A stretch of DNA of 28,128 bases from positions 1-28,128 of IMG/VR virus record IMGVR_UViG_3300049928_000003. The stretch is one strand, 5' to 3'. The position numbers and the translations under genes are program-made. A model generated the notes under the pieces. That model was not told the origin of the DNA and ran no database searches. It worked only from the letters and a program-made list of their open reading frames with translations. Each line of letters begins with the position of its first letter. The stretch's first letter is position 1. The DNA comes from a virus (lineage: Duplodnaviria > Caudoviricetes). Below, piece by piece: positions 4,736 through 28,128 of the stretch.

Positions 4736-5049
4736 TGGCCCATCTATTTGAACACGGATATCTGTATGACGACTGCTACATTTGTGGCGGCGGTGATCGT
4801 CCGGGTGTCCATTGGGTAGATTATGAGCACGATTACCGAACCGAAGGCCCTTATAGTCGTGTGCGCAAGCGCCTCGTCTGTAGTAGCTGCATCGGCGAAG
4901 GTCTCGCTGCCCTAGCAAAACTAGTTAAGGATGAAGATGGCGCTGACGATCCAGGAGTTGACGACAGCTTATCGGGAATTGCTCTCGGAACACAGGGAGC
5001 TACTGAAGGAACATCGAAAGTTGCTCGTAACTCTAAGCGAAACACCTAA
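4735..5049 (+). CDS. Putative zinc-binding protein (CYIC...CSSC, 104 aa)
   Basis: GTG start coupled to the previous TAG; two CxxC pairs; the low-complexity C-terminal tail overlaps the next gene. Confidence 0.7.
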   Translation: MAHLFEHGYLYDDCYICGGGDRPGVHWVDYEHDYRTEGPYSRVRKRLVCSSCIGEGLAALAKLVKDEDGADDPGVDDSLSGIALGTQGATEGTSKVARNSKRNT

Positions 5050-5218
5050 GTATCTGACGGAGCCTCTTGATCTTATTGATCGGGAATACGTTGATACGGA
5101 TTCCAGAAGGGCTCCGCCTTTGCGGAATGACCCATTCAGAGAACTTGCAGCCGAGATGGCTGAAGAAGCACGACTATTGGAAAACGCCGTAGGCGTAGCT
5201 AACATCGAAATGCACTAG
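4937..5218 (+). CDS. Hypothetical protein with N-terminal heptad repeat (93 aa)
   Basis: AAGGA SD five nt before ATG 4937; YRELLSE-HRELLKE-HRKLL repeat; ends just before the portal SD. Confidence 0.7.
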   Translation: MALTIQELTTAYRELLSEHRELLKEHRKLLVTLSETPKYLTEPLDLIDREYVDTDSRRAPPLRNDPFRELAAEMAEEARLLENAVGVANIEMH

Positions 5219-5229
5219 AGGGGAGGTTC

Positions 5230-7695
5230 ATGGCTGATCCTAATGTGATGCCGACGCCCCAGAATCCTGGTGCAAAGAACGATATGTACTCGGTTTCTCA
5301 GCTTAATACTGCTGCGGATCTGACGAAGAAGTGGCAGGCCCTTAAGACGGCTAGGAACCTTCTCGAAGTACAGTGGAAACTGAACCTGGCCTATTACCAG
5401 GGACGCCAGTATACGTACTACAATAAGAATGCTCAACGTATCGAAGAACTTCCCACGTCTGACGGGGACAAGCCACGCTATCGCGTGAGGCTGAAGTCCA
5501 ATCAGATCATGCCGGGGACACAGGGTCTATTAGCGAAGATGACGAAGACCAAGCCGGTGCTAAATGCTACGCCTGGTTCGTCTGATCCTAACGATCTGCG
5601 TGCTGCGCAGATGGCTGAGCGTCTCCTGGAGTTCTGGTGGACTGACCTGAAGCTCGATGATAAACTCGAAGAGGCCCTTCTCTGGAGTATCGTCGCTAGC
5701 CACGGGTACCTCCGGACTAGCTGGGATGGTCAGGCTGGTAAGGCGATGCGGTTTATACTTGATCCTCAGGGGAATCCGATCACCGACAGTTCCTTGAAGT
5801 CGATCTATCTCAATGAGCTTGCGCAACTTGGTATTCCGCGCGAAGCTGTCGAGAAGACGTTCTACATGGGTGACGTTGCGGTGGAGTCTATATCTCCCTT
5901 CAACGTGCTCCTGGATAGCACTGTCACCAACTTCTACGACTGCAAATATTGTTTTATCGTCTCCTACATGAGCCCGGATGAGGCTAAGGCCCGTTATGGG
6001 GAATGGCTGAAACCTGACTCCACTCCAATACCAGAAGACGCACTGATCCCCACGAGTGGTGGATTCGGTAATAATGCCCTTAAGACTACATGCAGGGTCA
6101 TTACCGGTTATTTCCGCCCCACACCAGTATTGCCCAAGGGGCGTGTGGTCTGTTGGAGCGATTCGAATGATAAAATTCTTGATGACCAGCCCTGGCCGTT
6201 TCCTAGTCACGAGCTTCCTCTCATTAAGTTTGGTATGCTTAAGATCCCGGGTCAGCTATATGACTCCAGTGTCGTTGAGCACGCGATTCCCCTTCAGCAG
6301 GAGTTGAATCGTACGATCAGTCAGATCGTTGAGTATAAGAACCTTACGATCAAGCCGCGAGTCTGGGCTCCCGTAGGTTCCATGCGTGAGCGCATGACCA
6401 ACGAACCCGGCGCGATCTACCAGTTCACACCTATCGCGGGGATGAAGCCAGAAATTGAAACTCTACCTAGTATGCCTCCGTATGTCTTCGAACACCTGGC
6501 GGATATCTCTCAGCGCCTCAAGGACGCATTCTACACCAGTGAGATTGATGGCGGAACTCTGCCTCCCAACGTGGAAGCATTTACTGCAATCGATCTACTA
6601 CAGGAAATGTCCTCGGATCGTATCGCTCCGGCGATTAAACTAATGGAGAAGTCAATTGGGCAACTCGGACAGCATCTTCTCGGACTCGCTCAGCAATACT
6701 ATATTGAGCCAAGACTACTCGCAATCAAGGGTGCAAACGGATCTACACAGGTTAAGGAATTTACCAAGGCAGACATTAATGGCGGAGTTACAATCTCTGT
6801 CGAGGCTGGCTCGGGACTACCACGTACCCGGGCTGGACGAATGGCTCAGATCCAGGCTCTTGTAGAGAAGGGGTATATTTCCCCACAGAATGGTCTTAAG
6901 CACATGAACGTGGCTGACCTTAACGGCCCGCTGGCAGCAATTGCCTCGGACGAGGATCAGGCACTACGTGAGCATGACAAGATTATTGAGGGTCGTCCGG
7001 TTAATGCGGACGCAGTTCGACAGGCTATGCAGACTATCAATACCCCAGATCCTAAGTTTGGTGTTCCGGTTAATCCTGATTCAGGGCAGCCGTTTACATC
7101 CGCTCAGGAGATGCAGCAGTATGTGCATGAGCAGGGGCTACAGCCTACACACTTCGAGGACTATCAGACCCATCGTGAACAGCATTCTCTGTTTATGAAG
7201 TCTATCGAGTTCGAAGCTCTACCGGAGCAGACTCAGGCCGATTTCATTACTCATTATGATGCTACATACCAGATCATCCGGAATCTGCCGCTGCCCAATG
7301 TCAAGGGGCCTGCGGTCAACATGCGGATCAATACGACGGCTACGCCGACCGTGGCGACCGAGATTCTCAATCGCGCTGGCATCTACGATGTTCAGCCGGA
7401 ACAGTTCACGAACGAAGCGCCGCTTGACTCGGCAGTTATTGACGACACTATTCATAGTGATCCTCAGAACGTTGACCCGGTTCAGGAGGCACAGGCTGCT
7501 GCAATCCAGCAGGAGTCTGCAAATAAGACAGCTAAGACTCAGGCCGATATCGCGAAGACGACGCAACAGATGACTCACGCGGAGGAACTGCATCAGCAGG
7601 CCCATCAGCACAATCATCAGGCGCATCACGTTAAGCTAGCGACCCAGAAGCAAGCTGCCAAAAATAAGGGAAAGCCTAGTGGGTCGTCCAAGTAG
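5230..7695 (+). CDS. Portal protein (P22-like, long Gln/His-rich C-terminal extension), 821 aa
   Basis: GGAGG SD; W..NLAYYQGRQY, N.I.P, D..AAQMAERLLEFWW, ISPF, IPLQQELNRTISQI and GSGLP.TRAGR motifs typical of podoviral portals; sits in the head module. Confidence 0.9.
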   Translation: MADPNVMPTPQNPGAKNDMYSVSQLNTAADLTKKWQALKTARNLLEVQWKLNLAYYQGRQYTYYNKNAQRIEELPTSDGDKPRYRVRLKSNQIMPGTQGLLAKMTKTKPVLNATPGSSDPNDLRAAQMAERLLEFWWTDLKLDDKLEEALLWSIVASHGYLRTSWDGQAGKAMRFILDPQGNPITDSSLKSIYLNELAQLGIPREAVEKTFYMGDVAVESISPFNVLLDSTVTNFYDCKYCFIVSYMSPDEAKARYGEWLKPDSTPIPEDALIPTSGGFGNNALKTTCRVITGYFRPTPVLPKGRVVCWSDSNDKILDDQPWPFPSHELPLIKFGMLKIPGQLYDSSVVEHAIPLQQELNRTISQIVEYKNLTIKPRVWAPVGSMRERMTNEPGAIYQFTPIAGMKPEIETLPSMPPYVFEHLADISQRLKDAFYTSEIDGGTLPPNVEAFTAIDLLQEMSSDRIAPAIKLMEKSIGQLGQHLLGLAQQYYIEPRLLAIKGANGSTQVKEFTKADINGGVTISVEAGSGLPRTRAGRMAQIQALVEKGYISPQNGLKHMNVADLNGPLAAIASDEDQALREHDKIIEGRPVNADAVRQAMQTINTPDPKFGVPVNPDSGQPFTSAQEMQQYVHEQGLQPTHFEDYQTHREQHSLFMKSIEFEALPEQTQADFITHYDATYQIIRNLPLPNVKGPAVNMRINTTATPTVATEILNRAGIYDVQPEQFTNEAPLDSAVIDDTIHSDPQNVDPVQEAQAAAIQQESANKTAKTQADIAKTTQQMTHAEELHQQAHQHNHQAHHVKLATQKQAAKNKGKPSGSSK

Positions 7696-22453: not shown

Positions 22454-23100
22454 TGGCCCTATCGACTGCCCTAGCTCTTAAACTTAAGACCGCCCTATAT
22501 AAGGATGCGATAAAGTACAACTACGTTGTCCCTGGATTCAGGGTCTATCGTAGGCAGGCTGATGGGACAGTAGTTCCCGTTCCGGGTGTGGGCACTCAGT
22601 GTCGTCAGATGATCGTCTCCTACCAGAAGCGGAAGGGACTGACCGTCGATGGCACCTTCAATGCGGAAACGCAGAAGAGTTTGATTCCGCCACCACCGTT
22701 AACGGTTGGGCAGAAGATCGCCAACGTCGCCCATGCCGGGATCAATGAGGCTCCTTGCCACTACACGCAGGCACGTCCATGCGTGACCAGTCTAGCGGGG
22801 ATGAAGGCGCATGGTTGCGACTGTTCCGCCTTCGCCATGATTTGTTTGAGCGCGGTGGTATCCGGGTATAGTACCGGCTACGGCAACACATGGACTCTTA
22901 TTGCTAAGGGTACTCGTGTAGCTCGATCCAACGCTCTCCCAGGGGATCTTGTATTCTATGGGCCACGAGCGGGGGATCCCACTCATGTGGCGGTATACCT
23001 CGGTGATGGGTTCGTCGCATCGCAGGGTCACGAAGGAGGCCCCTATCTTGAGGCCATCGACTATCGTGATGACCGGATCGATATCCGGCGATATGCGTAA
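22453..23100 (+). CDS. Endolysin: peptidoglycan-binding domain plus NlpC/P60 peptidase (215 aa)
   Basis: YQKRKGLTVDGTFNAET (PG-binding); DCSAF catalytic Cys, PGDLVFYG, HVAVYLGDG. Confidence 0.9.
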   Translation: MALSTALALKLKTALYKDAIKYNYVVPGFRVYRRQADGTVVPVPGVGTQCRQMIVSYQKRKGLTVDGTFNAETQKSLIPPPPLTVGQKIANVAHAGINEAPCHYTQARPCVTSLAGMKAHGCDCSAFAMICLSAVVSGYSTGYGNTWTLIAKGTRVARSNALPGDLVFYGPRAGDPTHVAVYLGDGFVASQGHEGGPYLEAIDYRDDRIDIRRYA

Positions 23101-23162
23101 TCCCCCGACCTACGGTTCAAATTGGAGGGACTAGCTCTTAAAACGTTCCAGATCGTGATTTT

Positions 23163-23201
23163 ATTCCCTCGGGGTCTTAATTGACTTCGAGGGAATTTTT
23201 T
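23163..23201 (+). terminator. Rho-independent terminator closing the structural/lysis operon
   Basis: 14-bp stem 23163-23176/23183-23196 (two G-U pairs), loop TTAATT, T run 23196-23201. Confidence 0.85.
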
Positions 23202-23226
23202 CGTATGCGTCATCGTTTAGACCTTC

Positions 23227-23511
23227 ATGCCTAAAAACTCTTATCCCGATGAAGATGCTCGGGGTCGTCAACTCTATAAGGACTTCGGTCTTACGTATAA
23301 AGACTACGATGATATGCTGGAAAAGCAAGATGGCGTATGCGCGATTTGCGGAGGGCACAACTCATCCGGGAAAGCCCTATCGGTCGATCATTGCCACTCG
23401 ACCGGAAAGATTCGAGGACTTCTCTGTCTGCATTGTAACGTAGGTTTGGGTTACTTTCGCGATAATCCCATGCGTCTTTTGGACGCTGTGGAATATTTGG
23501 AGAGGGTCTAG
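23227..23511 (+). CDS. Endonuclease VII family (His-Me finger) nuclease (94 aa)
   Basis: FGLT.KDYDDMLEKQDGVCAICG...LSVDHCHSTGKIRGLLC..CN.GLG.FRDN. Confidence 0.93.
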   Translation: MPKNSYPDEDARGRQLYKDFGLTYKDYDDMLEKQDGVCAICGGHNSSGKALSVDHCHSTGKIRGLLCLHCNVGLGYFRDNPMRLLDAVEYLERV

Positions 23512-23545
23512 CGTTTAAACAGTACAAGCGAAAAGAAAGGCGTCT

Positions 23546-24433
23546 ATGGGACTTCTCCCAATCGACTTGCCCGAGATGATTCGCGCGGGATTAGATGCGC
23601 AGGCGAAGCAGCCAGACGGATTGCTTCATGCCTCTAGTCTACTCGAACCTCTCCGGCATTCTCAGTTAAGGGCGGCAGGTGCGCCAGAGTACCGACGTAC
23701 GTTCACAAACGACGTTACGTTGAATACGGGGACGCTGTGGCATTCTTGGCTGGAGCAACTCTTGCGTGATGGACTCGGCGTAAGTTTGGGGAATGAGAGG
23801 ATCTTCAAGCCAACTGTACTGACCGAGATTGACTGCACGAAAGGTTTCCCGGAAGGTTGGAGCGGTACGGCGGACTGGCTCATCTGGAGCCCTGAGTGGA
23901 GGGCTTTCGTCCTCGGGGACTTGAAGACTATCAAGGGGGCGGGGCTCCCATACGTTATTAGAGATGGAGCTAAAGTAGGGCATATTTGGCAAGTCTCTTC
24001 CTACTGGTACGCTTTACGTAATATGGGTTTTCCTCTAGTTGAGGGGTTTAGTATTATCTATCTTCCTAAGGATGAGGTACCCGGTAAGGATCTTCAGCCT
24101 GCGGTTATGGACTGTAACTTGATTGACGAGATGGAACTGCTAGACGCTATGACTACGAAGAAGCGTCTGGTGGATGAGTATCTGATGGAGCCTTATCCTC
24201 AGTATCTCGCTAACTTTCCAGATCGTGAATTACATAAGGTTTGGAACAAGAAAGCTAATGCTTACGACGTAGTTCTCAAGCCTCACTATCTTGCAGCGTA
24301 TTGTCGCTTTATCGACTGTGGCTGTAACGAATTAGGTCAGACCAAAGTTGGTCATATCGAGGATGGAAAGTTTGTCCCCAGAAAAGGATACGAAGACTAT
24401 GAGTCTAGAGTTATTGACGAAGCTCTCTGCTAA
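23546..24433 (+). CDS. PD-(D/E)XK (Cas4/RecB-like) exonuclease (295 aa)
   Basis: HASSL, GTLWH, SGTADWL, GDLKT and Q...Y (HIWQVSSY) motifs; adjacent to an annealing protein. Confidence 0.85.
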   Translation: MGLLPIDLPEMIRAGLDAQAKQPDGLLHASSLLEPLRHSQLRAAGAPEYRRTFTNDVTLNTGTLWHSWLEQLLRDGLGVSLGNERIFKPTVLTEIDCTKGFPEGWSGTADWLIWSPEWRAFVLGDLKTIKGAGLPYVIRDGAKVGHIWQVSSYWYALRNMGFPLVEGFSIIYLPKDEVPGKDLQPAVMDCNLIDEMELLDAMTTKKRLVDEYLMEPYPQYLANFPDRELHKVWNKKANAYDVVLKPHYLAAYCRFIDCGCNELGQTKVGHIEDGKFVPRKGYEDYESRVIDEALC

Positions 24434-24977
24434 GTTCGATGTTGACGACACAAGTATGCGTGCTGGTGGTAAGGATGGACTAGACTACATCAGCATCGAC
24501 AAGGTTATCAATCGCTTTAATGAAGTGCTTGGTACTCATTGGTCGTTCGAAATTGTTAGTGAAGATATGTACCCTCAGAGTGCGCAGGGAACTTATTTCG
24601 CAAAGATCCATGGAAAGATTAGCGCATTAGGTAAGGTTGCTCACGGAGTAGGAGCAGACATTGCGAAGGATCCTGACAAGGCTTACAAGACTGCTCTCGC
24701 AGAAGCACTCAAGAAGTGCTCCCATCAGTATGGTGTCGCACTGTACCTCTGGAACGAGGACGACCGAAATCTCCTACGGGAACAGCGTAGTCTACGTAAT
24801 AACACCCGACAGTTGGAAGCAGCCGGAGATACTTTGGCTGCGAAGAAGTCCAAGGTAATCGAACTTGCTAAGTCTCGTGGAGTGGAACTGACTAAGGAGG
24901 CTATGGCCGCGTACTTCAAGGTTGAAGATTTCAACGACGAAGCAACGTTGGATCTGATCCTCGATGCCCAGAGTTAA
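24399..24977 (+). CDS. Rad52/Rad22-family (Sak-like) single-strand annealing protein (192 aa)
   Basis: LDYISIDKVINRFNEVLGTHWSFEI...KTALAEALKKCSHQYGVALYLW; ATG 24399 preferred over the track start at 24348. Confidence 0.88.
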   Translation: MSLELLTKLSAKFDVDDTSMRAGGKDGLDYISIDKVINRFNEVLGTHWSFEIVSEDMYPQSAQGTYFAKIHGKISALGKVAHGVGADIAKDPDKAYKTALAEALKKCSHQYGVALYLWNEDDRNLLREQRSLRNNTRQLEAAGDTLAAKKSKVIELAKSRGVELTKEAMAAYFKVEDFNDEATLDLILDAQS

Positions 24978-25965
24978 GAAGTATAACTTTGATGCCCAGG
25001 CTGAACGAGCTTACAAGGCGTGGCTTAGAGATAGACCAGAACTTATTTCCTGGGACACTGAGACTTCCGGACTTACGTGGCACGACTCAGCTTTCTGCGT
25101 AACGATTGGGTGGGAGAATGAGCAGCACTACATTGAACTCGGAGACTTTGTCCGTGAGATGCAAGTGTCTACGATCCTGCGAGATACGCCTAAATGGGTA
25201 CTGCACAATGCCAAGTTCGACTTTGAAAAACTATTGTTACTTGGACTTATTGAACGCAAAGACATCACATATAATAGGTATCACGACACAGAAATGATCG
25301 CTCATCTGATTGATGAGAACCGACCTAAGGGTCTTAAGCCCTTGGCGGAAAGTGTCCTAGGAAAGAAAACTGATGAAGCTAAGGCTCTACAGAAGGAACG
25401 TCGTAGGCTCAAGCTTAAGAAGGAAGATGGATACGACAAGTTATCTCGTGAGTTCCTTGTTCCCTATGCAATCAAGGATGCACGATTTACCTTTGACCTA
25501 TACAGGACAATGGAACCTATGCTCTCCGATGGAGTCCGTCCTCTTTATGATCAGGAGCGTAAACTCGGACTCGTCCTGCTGGACATGGAATTTAAGGGAC
25601 TAGCCGTTCGTTTAGAGTATGTGCAGAACAAGGTGAAAGAGTATGGATTCATCTTGCTCAAGAGCGAGATGAAGTTACGCAGTATGACTGGTAAGGAAGA
25701 TTTTAAACCGAAGTCTACTCCCCAGATCAAAGAGGCGTTAGCTCAACGAGGATTGTTTCCCGCTGATACAGAAGCGGATACACTTAAGAAGATCGATGAT
25801 GCGTTTTGTAGGGAAATTCTGCACTTTCGCAAGTATAACAAATTACGCAACACTTACCTAGTGAACATGGTCAAGGAATACGATAACGGTATCCTGCATC
25901 CCTGGATCAGACAGATGGGAACAGTCACAGGTAGAGCAGCCAGCGGCGGAGCATCTAATAACTAG
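24964..25965 (+). CDS. polA: DNA polymerase family A, N-terminal half (3'-5' exonuclease plus thumb; 333 aa)
   Basis: ExoI WDTETSGL, ExoII HNAKFD, ExoIII YAIKDA, thumb DMEFKG...STPQI...KLRNTY; ends LHPWIRQMGTVTGRAASGGASNN-stop. Confidence 0.93.
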   Translation: MPRVKKYNFDAQAERAYKAWLRDRPELISWDTETSGLTWHDSAFCVTIGWENEQHYIELGDFVREMQVSTILRDTPKWVLHNAKFDFEKLLLLGLIERKDITYNRYHDTEMIAHLIDENRPKGLKPLAESVLGKKTDEAKALQKERRRLKLKKEDGYDKLSREFLVPYAIKDARFTFDLYRTMEPMLSDGVRPLYDQERKLGLVLLDMEFKGLAVRLEYVQNKVKEYGFILLKSEMKLRSMTGKEDFKPKSTPQIKEALAQRGLFPADTEADTLKKIDDAFCREILHFRKYNKLRNTYLVNMVKEYDNGILHPWIRQMGTVTGRAASGGASNN

Positions 25966-25974
25966 GAGGGTAGT

Positions 25975-26049
25975 ATGTATATCGGAGTCGGAACTCTGTT
26001 GGTCATTTTGATCATCCTTCTTATCGTAATCGCACTTCGGAGGATTTAA
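25975..26049 (+). CDS. Single-TM micropeptide (24 aa), not in the ORF track
   Basis: GGAGG SD overlapping the pol stop; MYIGVGTLLVILIILLIVIALRRI; TAATG coupling. Confidence 0.75.
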   Translation: MYIGVGTLLVILIILLIVIALRRI

Positions 26050-26420
26050 TGCCCATTCGTAGAGTTAATATTGATGGCAATGACGAGAATGAGAAGCCTA
26101 CCTTACGCCGGGAAGTGCTTACTGAAATGCTGAGGGCGGGTTGGCCTGACGTAGATACATGGTGTGAGGATATCCCTTACAAGGATAAGGATAAGGCTCA
26201 GAAGATCCACCATGATTTCTTGTTTAGTGTTTCGAATTCTGTGGTAGAAGGAGAAATTCCTCTTGCGGGTGTTATCTCGCTGGGAGGACTCGCTCGTAAG
26301 AATATGCCTAAGGCCATGTACCTTTTGGGATTCGCTCCTGAAGGCGGCAAGGAAACTAGGCTCCCCAATCATTGGCCCGTGTTAGACAAGGAGCCAGAGA
26401 GGAAGTATATCGATGAGTAG
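26049..26420 (+). CDS. Hypothetical protein (123 aa) inside the split pol locus
   Basis: GGAGG SD, coupled on both sides. Confidence 0.8.
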   Translation: MPIRRVNIDGNDENEKPTLRREVLTEMLRAGWPDVDTWCEDIPYKDKDKAQKIHHDFLFSVSNSVVEGEIPLAGVISLGGLARKNMPKAMYLLGFAPEGGKETRLPNHWPVLDKEPERKYIDE

Positions 26421-26592
26421 ATTTGCTCCATTCACCGATCAGGAACTTATTGAACTCGAAGACCAGCGATACTACACCGGCCCCGCATCTGGAATCTTAG
26501 ATGAACTTAGCGCAGAGATTGATAAGCGAACTGAGGAACGGCGGCAGGCGACAGCAGCAGCCAAGAAGGATGAGGGAAATGCCTCGGGCTAA
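26413..26592 (+). CDS. Small helical protein (59 aa), not in the ORF track
   Basis: ATG 26413; MSRFAPFTDQELIELEDQRYYTGPASGILDELSAEIDKRTEERRQATAAAKKDEGNASG. Confidence 0.7.
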   Translation: MSRFAPFTDQELIELEDQRYYTGPASGILDELSAEIDKRTEERRQATAAAKKDEGNASG

Positions 26593-26767
26593 GAAGAAGA
26601 AAGTTGATAGTTTCACTGATACAGAACTCTACGTCATGGCTGAACTTATCAGCACTTATGCAGGAAATTTAACGGAGTTACTCTATGCGATTGATGAAGA
26701 GATTGCGAAGCGCGAAGGAGTCGAAGCAGTCCCCCTCCAGGTCGAGGGAGAACTACCCCCGTCTTGA
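26579..26767 (+). CDS. Small helical protein (62 aa)
   Basis: ATG 26579 after GAGG (track start 26501 probably too long); MPRAKKKKVDSFTDTEL...EEIAKREG. Confidence 0.7.
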   Translation: MPRAKKKKVDSFTDTELYVMAELISTYAGNLTELLYAIDEEIAKREGVEAVPLQVEGELPPS

Positions 26768-26778
26768 ATGGTACCGTA

Positions 26779-26798
26779 CTCCCTACTTGGGTAGGGAG
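26779..26798 (+). promoter_or_regulatory. Perfect 8-bp hairpin containing a strong SD-like sequence
   Basis: CTCCCTAC-TTGG-GTAGGGAG; no U tract; GGGAGG precedes the minigene ATG CTG ATC TAG (26809-26820). Confidence 0.5.
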
Positions 26799-26848
26799 GG
26801 GCAGAAGAATGCTGATCTAGACCTAGAAATCGAAAGGCGGAAGGAAGC

Positions 26849-27646
26849 ATCAACCTCCAAAACATCCCTCGCTCTGACAAGACAATTAAGGCAGGTTTCG
26901 AACCCAAACTCGATCAGTTCGTTTTTGCTGATTACAAGGCAGTCGAATACAGATTACTCGCGTATTACCTCTTTCAGATCGGTTTCCCCGCGATGGCTGA
27001 GGATTTTCGGGCTGGACTTGATCCGCATCGACAAACCGCGATCCGTCTACTCGGCGAACGCGATACTCCCTCTGACGAAGAACGGCAGTTCGGTAAAACT
27101 TTTAACTTCGCTTCCATTTACGGGGCCGGAGCAAATAAAATTAAGACCATGCTGGCCGACGAGGGGCTATCGTTACCTGAAGGAAAGACTGCTAAGCAAC
27201 TTCATACTGAGTTCTATGCGCTCAATCCGGGGATACGAGCTTTATCGAATCCACGACCAAGATGGAATGACAACTCCTGGGTACCTGGGCATATCGAAAA
27301 GATACTCGAATCGCGTGGTTATATCCGAACGCTATGGGGTAGGGAATTACACCCTGAATACGCGTACCGGGCACTCAATTCGCTTGTTCAAGGTTGCGCG
27401 GCAGACCTTATGCGGGCGGGTATGGTCAAAGTTCACGACTGGATTACGGAAGCTAAGCTAGAATCGCACCTAGTAATGACCGTACACGATGAGTTGATCT
27501 TCGATGTTGTCGATGAGGAATTTGACCTACTCGTAGGCATGGTTCCTAAGTTGATGACCGATGCTCGACTCGAAGAGATACTACCTATTGAGGTAGAACT
27601 GGAAACTAGCCGCACTACCTGGGCAGAAAAGGAACCCTATGGGTAA
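26849..27646 (+). CDS. polA: DNA polymerase family A, C-terminal catalytic half (about 265 aa; probable ATC start)
   Basis: Frame open from 26816: (I)NLQNIPRSD, motif A FADYKAVEYRLLA (Asp at 26930), motif B RQFGKTFNFASIYG, ALNSLVQGCAAD, motif C TVHDEL. The first ATG (26993) is downstream of motif A. Product secure, start inferred. Confidence 0.9.
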   Translation: MNLQNIPRSDKTIKAGFEPKLDQFVFADYKAVEYRLLAYYLFQIGFPAMAEDFRAGLDPHRQTAIRLLGERDTPSDEERQFGKTFNFASIYGAGANKIKTMLADEGLSLPEGKTAKQLHTEFYALNPGIRALSNPRPRWNDNSWVPGHIEKILESRGYIRTLWGRELHPEYAYRALNSLVQGCAADLMRAGMVKVHDWITEAKLESHLVMTVHDELIFDVVDEEFDLLVGMVPKLMTDARLEEILPIEVELETSRTTWAEKEPYG

Positions 27647-27854
27647 GCGACAAATGGGTTTCGTCAACTTCCGTCAGAACTTTTTGTTCCCGGATGACGA
27701 GACATATGAAGAATTTGCTACTGCGTTGATGCGCAGGTTCAATGAGGATGCTATGTTCTTAGAGCAGGCTTACTCTGATCGTGGTATCGAGATTCTCCAG
27801 CACAGTGAGTTCGAACTTCACTTCGATGGCGAAGACGATGACGAAGAAGCCTAA
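27639..27854 (+). CDS. Acidic hypothetical protein (71 aa)
   Basis: AAGGA SD; overlaps both neighbours. Confidence 0.7.
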   Translation: MGKRQMGFVNFRQNFLFPDDETYEEFATALMRRFNEDAMFLEQAYSDRGIEILQHSEFELHFDGEDDDEEA

Positions 27855-28128
27855 CATTGTTATTGACTTGGACGGTACAATCCTAGAAGACTCTTGGCCG
27901 AAGCTAGGAGACTGGATGCCCGGAGCCAAGGAGGCTCTACGTGAACTTACCGAAGTATCAAAAGTACTCGTTTACACATGCAGGATCGCTCCTGTCACCC
28001 CCATGGGTATGCAACGTGACCCTGCGCACGTCCAAGCGGAGATTAACTCTATCCGTGAAAAACTCGATGACGCCCAACTCTACACCGTCGAAGTATGGAC
28101 GAAACCATACAAGCCATACGGTGTCGCG
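27838..28128 (+). CDS. HAD-superfamily phosphatase/nucleotidase, truncated by the window end
   Basis: MTKKPNIVIDLDGTI (motif I DxDGT), MPGAKEALREL, LVYTCR (motif II); open to the end of the window. Confidence 0.85.
   Translation, partial: MTKKPNIVIDLDGTILEDSWPKLGDWMPGAKEALRELTEVSKVLVYTCRIAPVTPMGMQRDPAHVQAEINSIREKLDDAQLYTVEVWTKPYKPYGVA

Follow-up and report, generated by a model that had tools for sequence, protein, structure and literature searches.

Organization of the locus

The window analysed here is the whole 28,128-nucleotide stretch of the IMG/VR virus record IMGVR_UViG_3300049928_000003 (Caudoviricetes), and its subject is a family A DNA polymerase (PolA) that is encoded in two separate genes. 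A preliminary description, made by a model from the letters alone, had placed the break between the TGR motif and NLQNIP and had put 883 nucleotides (nt) between the halves; both points stand, given that open reading frames (ORFs) at 24964-25965 and 26849-27646 match abutting profiles and that 883 nt separate the PolA-N stop at 25965 from ATC 26849. The first ORF (PolA-N, the N-half), the second (PolA-C, the C-half) and the elements that mark their ends are as follows.

24964..25965, + strand: PolA-N subunit gene, 333 aa, with 3'-5' exonuclease, thumb, TGR strand and short end tail (PF01612 at 27-187, PF00476 at 226-327)
25921..25935, + strand: TVTGR motif, its Arg homologous to Klenow R668 by alignment
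26779..26798, + strand: 8-bp hairpin in the 81-nt spacer before the C-half (the region folds no better than shuffles, z +1.16 and +0.61)
26835..26840, + strand: Shine-Dalgarno (SD)-like AGGCGG, 8 nt before the ATC (-7.1 kcal/mol against the anti-SD 9-mer)
26849..27646, + strand: PolA-C subunit gene, 265 aa from the likely ATC start, with NLQNIP, motif A, fingers (motif B), motif 6 and motif C (Pfam, motifs, homologues starting at the same position)

Domains and motifs of the two halves

The PolA-N product terminates in ...TVTGRAASGGASNN*, its stop coming after the TGR motif, and the C-half frame, open from 26816 to 27646, takes up the polymerase with N-L-Q-N-I-P from 26852. The Pfam DNA_pol_A profile is matched at its positions 10-123 by the N-half and 125-380 by the C-half, and the PHROG 17 profile at 671-979 and 980-1236; since both pairs of matches abut, no domain is lost or duplicated. 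The earlier statement that nothing had been lost or duplicated thus holds for the domains and fails at the junction, where the conserved Pro of the motif is lost, the likely initiator codon stands in its place and a short extra tail has been added to the N-half. Exonuclease motifs I, II and III, the TGR motif and motifs A, B, 6 and C were all found, in agreement with the earlier reading of the exonuclease and A/B/C motifs as intact, and motif B of PolA-C reads KTFNF (Phe at position B3). With this motif set, a Klenow fold and fold matches to PolA models and structures, the two products can be assigned to family A, the activity itself being a prediction from sequence and fold.

By profile alignment to Klenow, PolA-N ends at chain residue 349 and PolA-C resumes at 352, which we take to be residues 672 and 675 of the E. 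coli enzyme, a numbering that depends on the presumed first residue of the fragment. The TGR Arg is invariant in 63 aligned sequences; R668, N675, D705 and D882 of Klenow are given as DNA-binding or catalytic residues in the accessible part of PMC10520511. AlphaFold2 models of each half alone have a mean predicted local distance difference test score (pLDDT) of 93 for PolA-N, in which residues 322-333 fall below 50, and of 96 for PolA-C; the low-confidence TGR tail strand of PolA-N may, on these models, become ordered on its partner.

The start of the catalytic half

A point missed in the preliminary description is that the C-half has no canonical start before motif A: ATG, GTG and TTG are all absent upstream of that motif (26924-26953), and the first ATG lies at 26993. 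The sole candidate is the ATC at 26849, directly before N-L-Q-N-I-P, which is likely the start of PolA-C. Its SD pairing amounts to -7.1 kcal/mol, compared with -2.4 at the downstream ATG 26993, both energies being calculated with what we take to be the anti-SD 9-mer.

Two further frames are found around this position. A short frame at 26764-26820 runs over the stop of ORF 4 in the gap (see below), ends with ATG-CTG-ATC-TAG at 26809-26820 and carries an SD-like site stronger than any other in the region (-12.3 kcal/mol), partly within the hairpin; the frame could bring ribosomes to the ATC 28 nt downstream. A 258-codon frame at 26685-27461, out of phase with the C-half that it overlaps, is open only because ATC leaves no stop at the junction and is unlikely to be a gene.

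Conservation of the break and of the start position

A protein search with the C-half yielded 210 proteins of 145-464 aa; among the 120 listed, 97 start one residue before N-x-Q, 10 have upstream extensions and 13 are called downstream. The corresponding search with the N-half gave 83 proteins, 77 of them half-length and separately encoded, and all but one of these (76/77) end 7-11 residues past the TGR Arg. With ends of this kind the halves do not have the make-up of a split intein, and neither carries an intein domain in Pfam, consistent with the earlier remark that intein termini are absent.

At the DNA level, patterns that were anchored in the C-half and left out the codon before N-x-Q retrieved 162 loci, or 164 with the window and L001, duplicates included. 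The N-half end is present in 126 of these, always upstream and on the same strand, and in none is it fused in frame. Removal of near-copies left 103 non-redundant loci, 86 with both ends; the gap measures -5 to +4 nt in 22 of the 86 (18 being ATGA overlaps) and 115-2186 nt in the other 64, and its length falls in all three frames (11, 38 and 37 loci). The breakpoint is thus shared among relatives whose gap contents are unrelated, as the preliminary description had proposed to check. Locus L001 has an in-frame stop just past the start of motif A in its C-half (5080-5100), from a small frameshift, which is either an error or the mark of a pseudogene. A looser pattern added 75 loci: 58 fused ones, all with at most 140 bits on the family profile, four more that are fused with TGR in frame (L345, L350, L366, L380), 11 family members (10 visibly split, one without an N-half in the locus), one that is not PolA, and L369, discussed below. 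Alignment-based scans covering 160 loci returned 147 fused distant PolAs, 12 split family members and one partial locus.

The codon before N-x-Q in the 103 non-redundant loci is ATG in 55, GTG in 24, TTG in 10, ATT in six, ATA and ACG in three each, and ATC and TTC in one each, so that a cognate or near-cognate start occupies the position in 102. Wherever this codon encodes Val it is GTG (24/24; background 22%), compared with 6 of 68 for a control Val two codons on, and likewise Leu is always TTG (10/10; background 15%) and Thr always ACG (3/3; background 23%). An in-frame stop occurs within five codons upstream of the C-half start in 52 of the 103 loci. Median SD pairing strengthens from -5.35 kcal/mol at ATG (n=54) to -7.2 at GTG/TTG (n=34) and -7.7 at other codons (n=14), with p about 3e-5 when related loci are counted separately. 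Additional cases are ATC in L392 and in L333, where a stop immediately precedes it, and CTG in L386; a canonical in-frame start upstream is missing from 10 of the 17 non-canonical cases. Such statistics indicate that the C-half is initiated by itself, neither spliced nor hopped to.

Selection and phylogeny

Both halves are kept under purifying selection in relatives. The median ratio of nonsynonymous to synonymous substitution rates (dN/dS) is 0.16 for the N-half and 0.12 for the C-half (maxima 0.25 and 0.20) in the 79 unsaturated of 538 close pairs, which come from 29 loci and are not independent of one another; the elevation that the preliminary description had named as damaging to its claim is therefore absent from the relatives. 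The first 47 codons of the C-half have a dN/dS of 0.06 in 71 pairs, and selection is not relaxed in close pairs that differ in gap content (760 versus -4 nt). The only close relative of the window is known as proteins, with 80-81% identity.

A quick tree built from 110 C-terminal regions places the 53 split rows in a single group, with a Shimodaira-Hasegawa-like approximate likelihood ratio test (SH-aLRT) support of 99. None of the 120 long proteins listed exceeds 35% identity, and an exhaustive profile search brought out two full-length relatives, P0362 (634 aa) and P0378 (676 aa). The former is intact: its junction reads S-E-P-N-L-Q, the canonical form, and it branches as sister to the split group, with support of 98 for the two together and 87 for the split group. 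The latter, for which one short contig is the only source, uses a split-type tail as its linker, lacks the Pro, nests among the split forms (97) and is a probable natural re-fusion. L369, a member of a distant group (100) whose other forms are fused, has its break in the same loop, its placement indicating an independent second split after TGR. At this locus (4974-5399, minus strand) the N-part is longer, and two ordinary ORFs of 82 and 14 aa lie in a 302-nt gap that gives no Rfam match. The N and C trees share their main subclades and differ at L171 and L197; the idea of subunit swapping between phages was considered and is unsupported, as the main groups are shared despite these two loci. 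As far as these sequences reach, the split is old and clade-wide in uncultured soil and freshwater phages.

Contents of the gap

In the window the gap is mostly occupied by four small ORFs, each with an SD-like site.

25975..26049, + strand: insert ORF 1, 24 aa, predicted single membrane helix (SD -10.7 kcal/mol; sub-threshold match to a transmembrane model)
26049..26420, + strand: insert ORF 2, 123 aa, no known family (unmatched in Pfam, PHROG and NCBIfam)
26413..26592, + strand: insert ORF 3, 59 aa, perhaps paralogous to ORF 4 (31% identity over 49 aa, E 0.003)
26579..26767, + strand: insert ORF 4, 62 aa (ATG 26579 inside an 88-aa frame; SD-like site)

The preliminary description had spoken of a four-gene cassette in the break. 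All four ORFs are indeed present, but a conserved cassette is not borne out, as tblastn of each against the 167 family loci gave no match. They match no family, nucleases included, in Pfam, PHROG or NCBIfam, which upholds the earlier observation that none resembles a homing endonuclease; the ESM Atlas neighbours of ORF 2 are unnamed and mostly in viral clusters. ORFs 3 and 4 resemble tandem paralogues, and an acidic-basic stretch like theirs is found in another frame at ~26808-26849, perhaps an eroded third copy whose end formerly coincided with the C-half start.

Gap contents in relatives, surveyed by scanning 40 representative ORFs out of 111, are mutually unrelated and include family 2 glycosyltransferases (20 ORFs), a small acidic ORF (15), SLOG proteins (6), dCMP deaminases (2), HNH-like (2) and LAGLIDADG-like (1) ORFs and many singletons. 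An HNH- or LAGLIDADG-like ORF occurs in three of the 64 gapped non-redundant loci, in every case below the Pfam cut-off or unscored. These three (L176 6059-6415, L250 2627-2893 and L255 2674-3027, minus strand) directly abut the C-half start, and both HNH cases accompany an ATT start. The four ORFs of the window are best read as cargo accreted at a gene boundary, incidental to the polymerase; as far as can be seen from the sequences, they did not cause the break and lie outside the mechanism.

Two probable subunits of one enzyme

The polymerase is very probably encoded in two genes throughout the clade, with products that likely assemble non-covalently as one enzyme and a catalytic half that likely starts at ATC 26849. 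Each part has its own stop and start, is conserved in relatives and is under purifying selection as measured there, as expected of a naturally split polymerase; clade-wide conservation, insert-free alleles and start-codon statistics, together with that selection, support the two-subunit PolA suggested in the preliminary description. Each half would be translated separately from one transcript, PolA-N providing proofreading, the DNA-gripping thumb and the TGR strand, and PolA-C the fingers and the two catalytic aspartate motifs. Only upon docking into the PolA-C palm would the TGR strand become ordered, and PolA-C would be kept limiting by its weak start. With the break then an ordinary gene boundary, unrelated genes, the four ORFs of the window included, could accrete there.

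Several points weigh against this interpretation. Seven of the 17 non-canonical cases have a canonical codon upstream that is a possible alternative start, and L266 has TTC at the start position and GTG three codons upstream. An ATC start may yield little protein: AUC initiation reaches 1-2% of AUG in E. coli, giving an N-terminal Met, in the accessible text of bioRxiv 063800. The window itself is outside the dN/dS set, its nearest DNA-level relative having about 50% amino-acid identity. Both trees are quick searches, and support for the split clade drops from 99 to 87 once P0362 is added; the existence of the two full-length relatives means that the split is not universal around the clade.

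Four other explanations have to be weighed, two of which would restore a single chain. The break lies exactly at the intron site of phage SPO1, and a G precedes the Asn codon in 92 of the 103 loci, as the 3' splice site of a group I intron requires; the 883 nt would on this account be a divergent group I-type intron whose splicing restores one ORF. However, the base before the Asn codon is C in the window and is other than G in 11 of the 103 loci, and no ribozyme core is detected in the gap. Rfam gave no intron match in window region 25700-27100 (five matches at E up to 5, all at chance level and none of them close to a gathering score), only tRNA and transfer-messenger RNA (tmRNA) in 17 gapped loci and nothing in the L369 gap. 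The junction regions fold no better than shuffles (z +0.6 to +1.2), 22 of 86 loci stay split without room for an intron, and the gap of the window is filled with SD-bearing ORFs, all of which makes rejoining at the RNA level highly unlikely. Equally poor is the case for a ribosomal bypass in the manner of T4 gene 60, with take-off at the last AAC before TAG and landing at the AAC of N-L-Q to give one chain. It would account for the missing canonical start, and in the window, as in L392 (another ATC case), AAC-TAG ends the N-half and AAC stands at the resume site. Yet just eight of 86 loci repeat the last N-half codon close to the C-half start, and just one repeats it at the Asn codon; L333 has ATC without a take-off/landing match; the hop described in the accessible literature spans 50 nt, against about 890 nt across four ORFs here; no stimulatory structure was seen; and initiation explains both the start-codon and the SD statistics.

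The other two accept separate proteins. The family may work as a two-subunit enzyme of which the C-half in the window is crippled, by a recent ATG-to-ATC change or an assembly error. The context G-A-A-G-C-A-T-C-A does resemble the ATGA overlaps of the family, an ATG at this codon would close an upstream frame, and the sole run with the window sequence is possibly its source. But the 81% relative P0003 is likewise called from a downstream ATG, which fits a missing canonical start there (it is a protein record only); ATC, ATT, ATA and ACG recur across the clade; and the C-half of the window has all catalytic motifs intact and an SD that fits the weak-start class, so that crippling is improbable. 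Finally, PolA-N might be a stand-alone 3'-5' exonuclease working with the annealing protein, and PolA-C a thumbless polymerase or one with another partner, a view to which up to 2.2 kb of other genes between the halves, the confident folding of PolA-C alone and weak starts suggestive of unequal amounts would lend themselves. Against it, PolA-N retains a thumb and the invariant TGR Arg, which are meaningful just in a polymerase site, order and linkage are kept in 126 of 126 loci, the N and C trees agree in their main subclades and P0378 fuses the halves directly; very little weight can be given to halves that act apart.

Comparison with known systems

Split replication enzymes have been described in several phage groups. 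An exo|pol split in S-SBP1-like T7-like phages is reported as the first PolA split in the accessible part of Czernecki et al. 2023 (PMC10201439), from whose analysis sequences <350 aa were removed; this filter would drop the C-halves of the present clade. The two cases resemble each other in that a phage family A polymerase has undergone fission with a new stop and start, no splicing element and a complex that is inferred. They differ in that the polymerase domain itself is interrupted here, the break falling after the TGR strand and before NLQNIP and leaving the thumb in the N-half, and in that position B3 of motif B is Tyr in the S-SBP1-like clade and Phe here, so the present polymerase does not belong with it. 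In Aeromonas phages 25 and 44RR, the halves of the split PolB, gp43A and gp43B, co-purify and are active, and their gap holds a homing endonuclease in one phage and none in another, an element that may have entered an already split gene (PMC2988022, as far as accessible). This, too, is a two-chain phage replicase, unlike the present one in its family B fold, in the site of its break and in being shown biochemically.

Further parallels come from other enzymes and from introns. The preliminary description had named Aeh1 nrdA as a functional fractured gene, which agrees with the accessible text of PMC3045599, where an essential enzyme is made as two polypeptides without RNA or protein splicing, the fracture having arisen by an insertion of mobE that is still present and having required new tails on both halves. 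Unlike that nuclease-fractured gene, the window has no nuclease in the gap, PolA-C has no N-terminal tail and the tail of PolA-N is short. The split DNA polymerase of chimalliviruses is of family B. It provides a precedent for a shared palm in a different polymerase lineage. According to the accessible part of bioRxiv 10.64898/2026.09.30.755723, the palm of these jumbo phage enzymes (DNAP-N and DNAP-C) is formed from two interdigitated chains, with a third subunit for processivity. The preliminary description had placed the SPO1 polA intron at the homologous position between Pro and Asn, and this was seen on NC_011421, where S-S-N-E-P closes exon 1 and N-A-Q-Q opens exon 2. The group I intron of SPO1 gene 31 thus occupies the same PolA position after TGR; it rejoins its exons by self-splicing and carries a homing endonuclease (NC_011421; PMC11878797 as far as accessible), whereas the present locus shows no intron core and gives the second part a start of its own.

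No PolA split was found in the accessible parts of PMC7824862 and PMC9599517, and the idea of a split PolA in vibriophage ICP1 was considered and proved wrong according to what is accessible of PMC9040626. In the accessible literature that was searched, no description of a PolA break after TGR was found, the exo|pol split being the only one. What appears to be new is a PolA divided within the palm between two genes, the second of which likely starts at ATC; the exo|pol split was known already.

Origin of the break

Since the break coincides with the SPO1 intron site, an origin from a homing element is possible. The suggestion of the preliminary description that it is possibly a scar of such an element, or an escape from one, found no support: no intron remnant was found at the break by Rfam in the window region, the 17 gapped loci or the L369 gap, and HNH- or LAGLIDADG-like ORFs are limited to the three gapped loci described above. 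An intron whose terminal G joined the start codon is a plausible source, and a simple fission through an ATGA overlap would fit the data equally well.

A more far-reaching and rather unlikely reading would see the split as a control device in which the terminal G of an SPO1-type intron, now dead, became the start codon. The clade would then tune its catalytic subunit through near-cognate starts (ATC, ATT, ATA, ACG, CTG) and compensating SD sites, the proofreading-thumb subunit would be in excess and might act free in recombination-dependent replication, and the loop following TGR would act as a natural hinge, the site of at least two splits and at least one re-fusion of PolA.

Genome context

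Tailed-phage genes for terminase, portal and major head protein are recognized in the window by Pfam and PHROG. Around the split polymerase genes of the family lies a replication module with a Cas4-like nuclease, a Rad52- or ERF-type annealing protein, an AAA_25 helicase-like gene and endonuclease VII, of which two genes directly precede PolA-N in the window.

23546..24433, + strand: Cas4-like exonuclease gene (phrog_1706; similar genes in 55/167 family loci)
24348..24977, + strand: Rad52/22-like single-strand annealing protein gene (PF04098; similar genes in 63/167 family loci), overlapping the PolA-N start

An endonuclease VII-type ORF of 94 aa is located 5' of the replication genes (23227-23511), and 17 family loci have ORFs like it, frequently located behind the helicase-like gene. 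A scan for sigma-70-like promoters over window 23000-28128 gave no site where 5.5 were expected, and no terminator-like site was found within the 883-nt gap; in some relatives, sigma-like proteins are encoded near the polymerase genes. A tmRNA match was noted at L266 1-82, and several tRNA genes (L169, L176, L179) lie within a few kb of the polymerase genes.

The window sequence is present in one soil metagenome run; no RNA run is listed with it, which has no bearing on expression. With regard to misassembly at either junction, named in the preliminary description as a possible refutation, one Logan contig crosses both unbroken, covering 24500-28128 with a single difference, at 28002; as this contig is possibly the source of the window, it is not independent confirmation of the junctions. 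Two DNA patterns for the window's own subclade met no viral contig, hence no close DNA relative was found with them. Cultured phages reached best identities of about 30-34% with two queries, so that no isolate of the split clade was found. No host marker appeared among 87 neighbouring ORFs of six loci, and the one 8.7-kb contig of a metagenome-assembled genome matched in a genome collection search was not used as a host call.

Implications

If the two-gene reading is true, the clade has a family A polymerase whose palm comes from two chains, cut at a site different from that of the only printed PolA split found. Surveys that use polA as a marker with length filters or TGR-to-motif-C amplicons would miss the clade or call its genes pseudogenes, and gene callers truncate the catalytic subunit at a non-canonical start, as in the 13 of 120 listed homologues called downstream of the motif. 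The break would also mark a natural split point in the Klenow/Taq scaffold that might serve in conditional or hot-start enzymes, and the family would provide a naturally occurring set of near-cognate starts for one essential gene.

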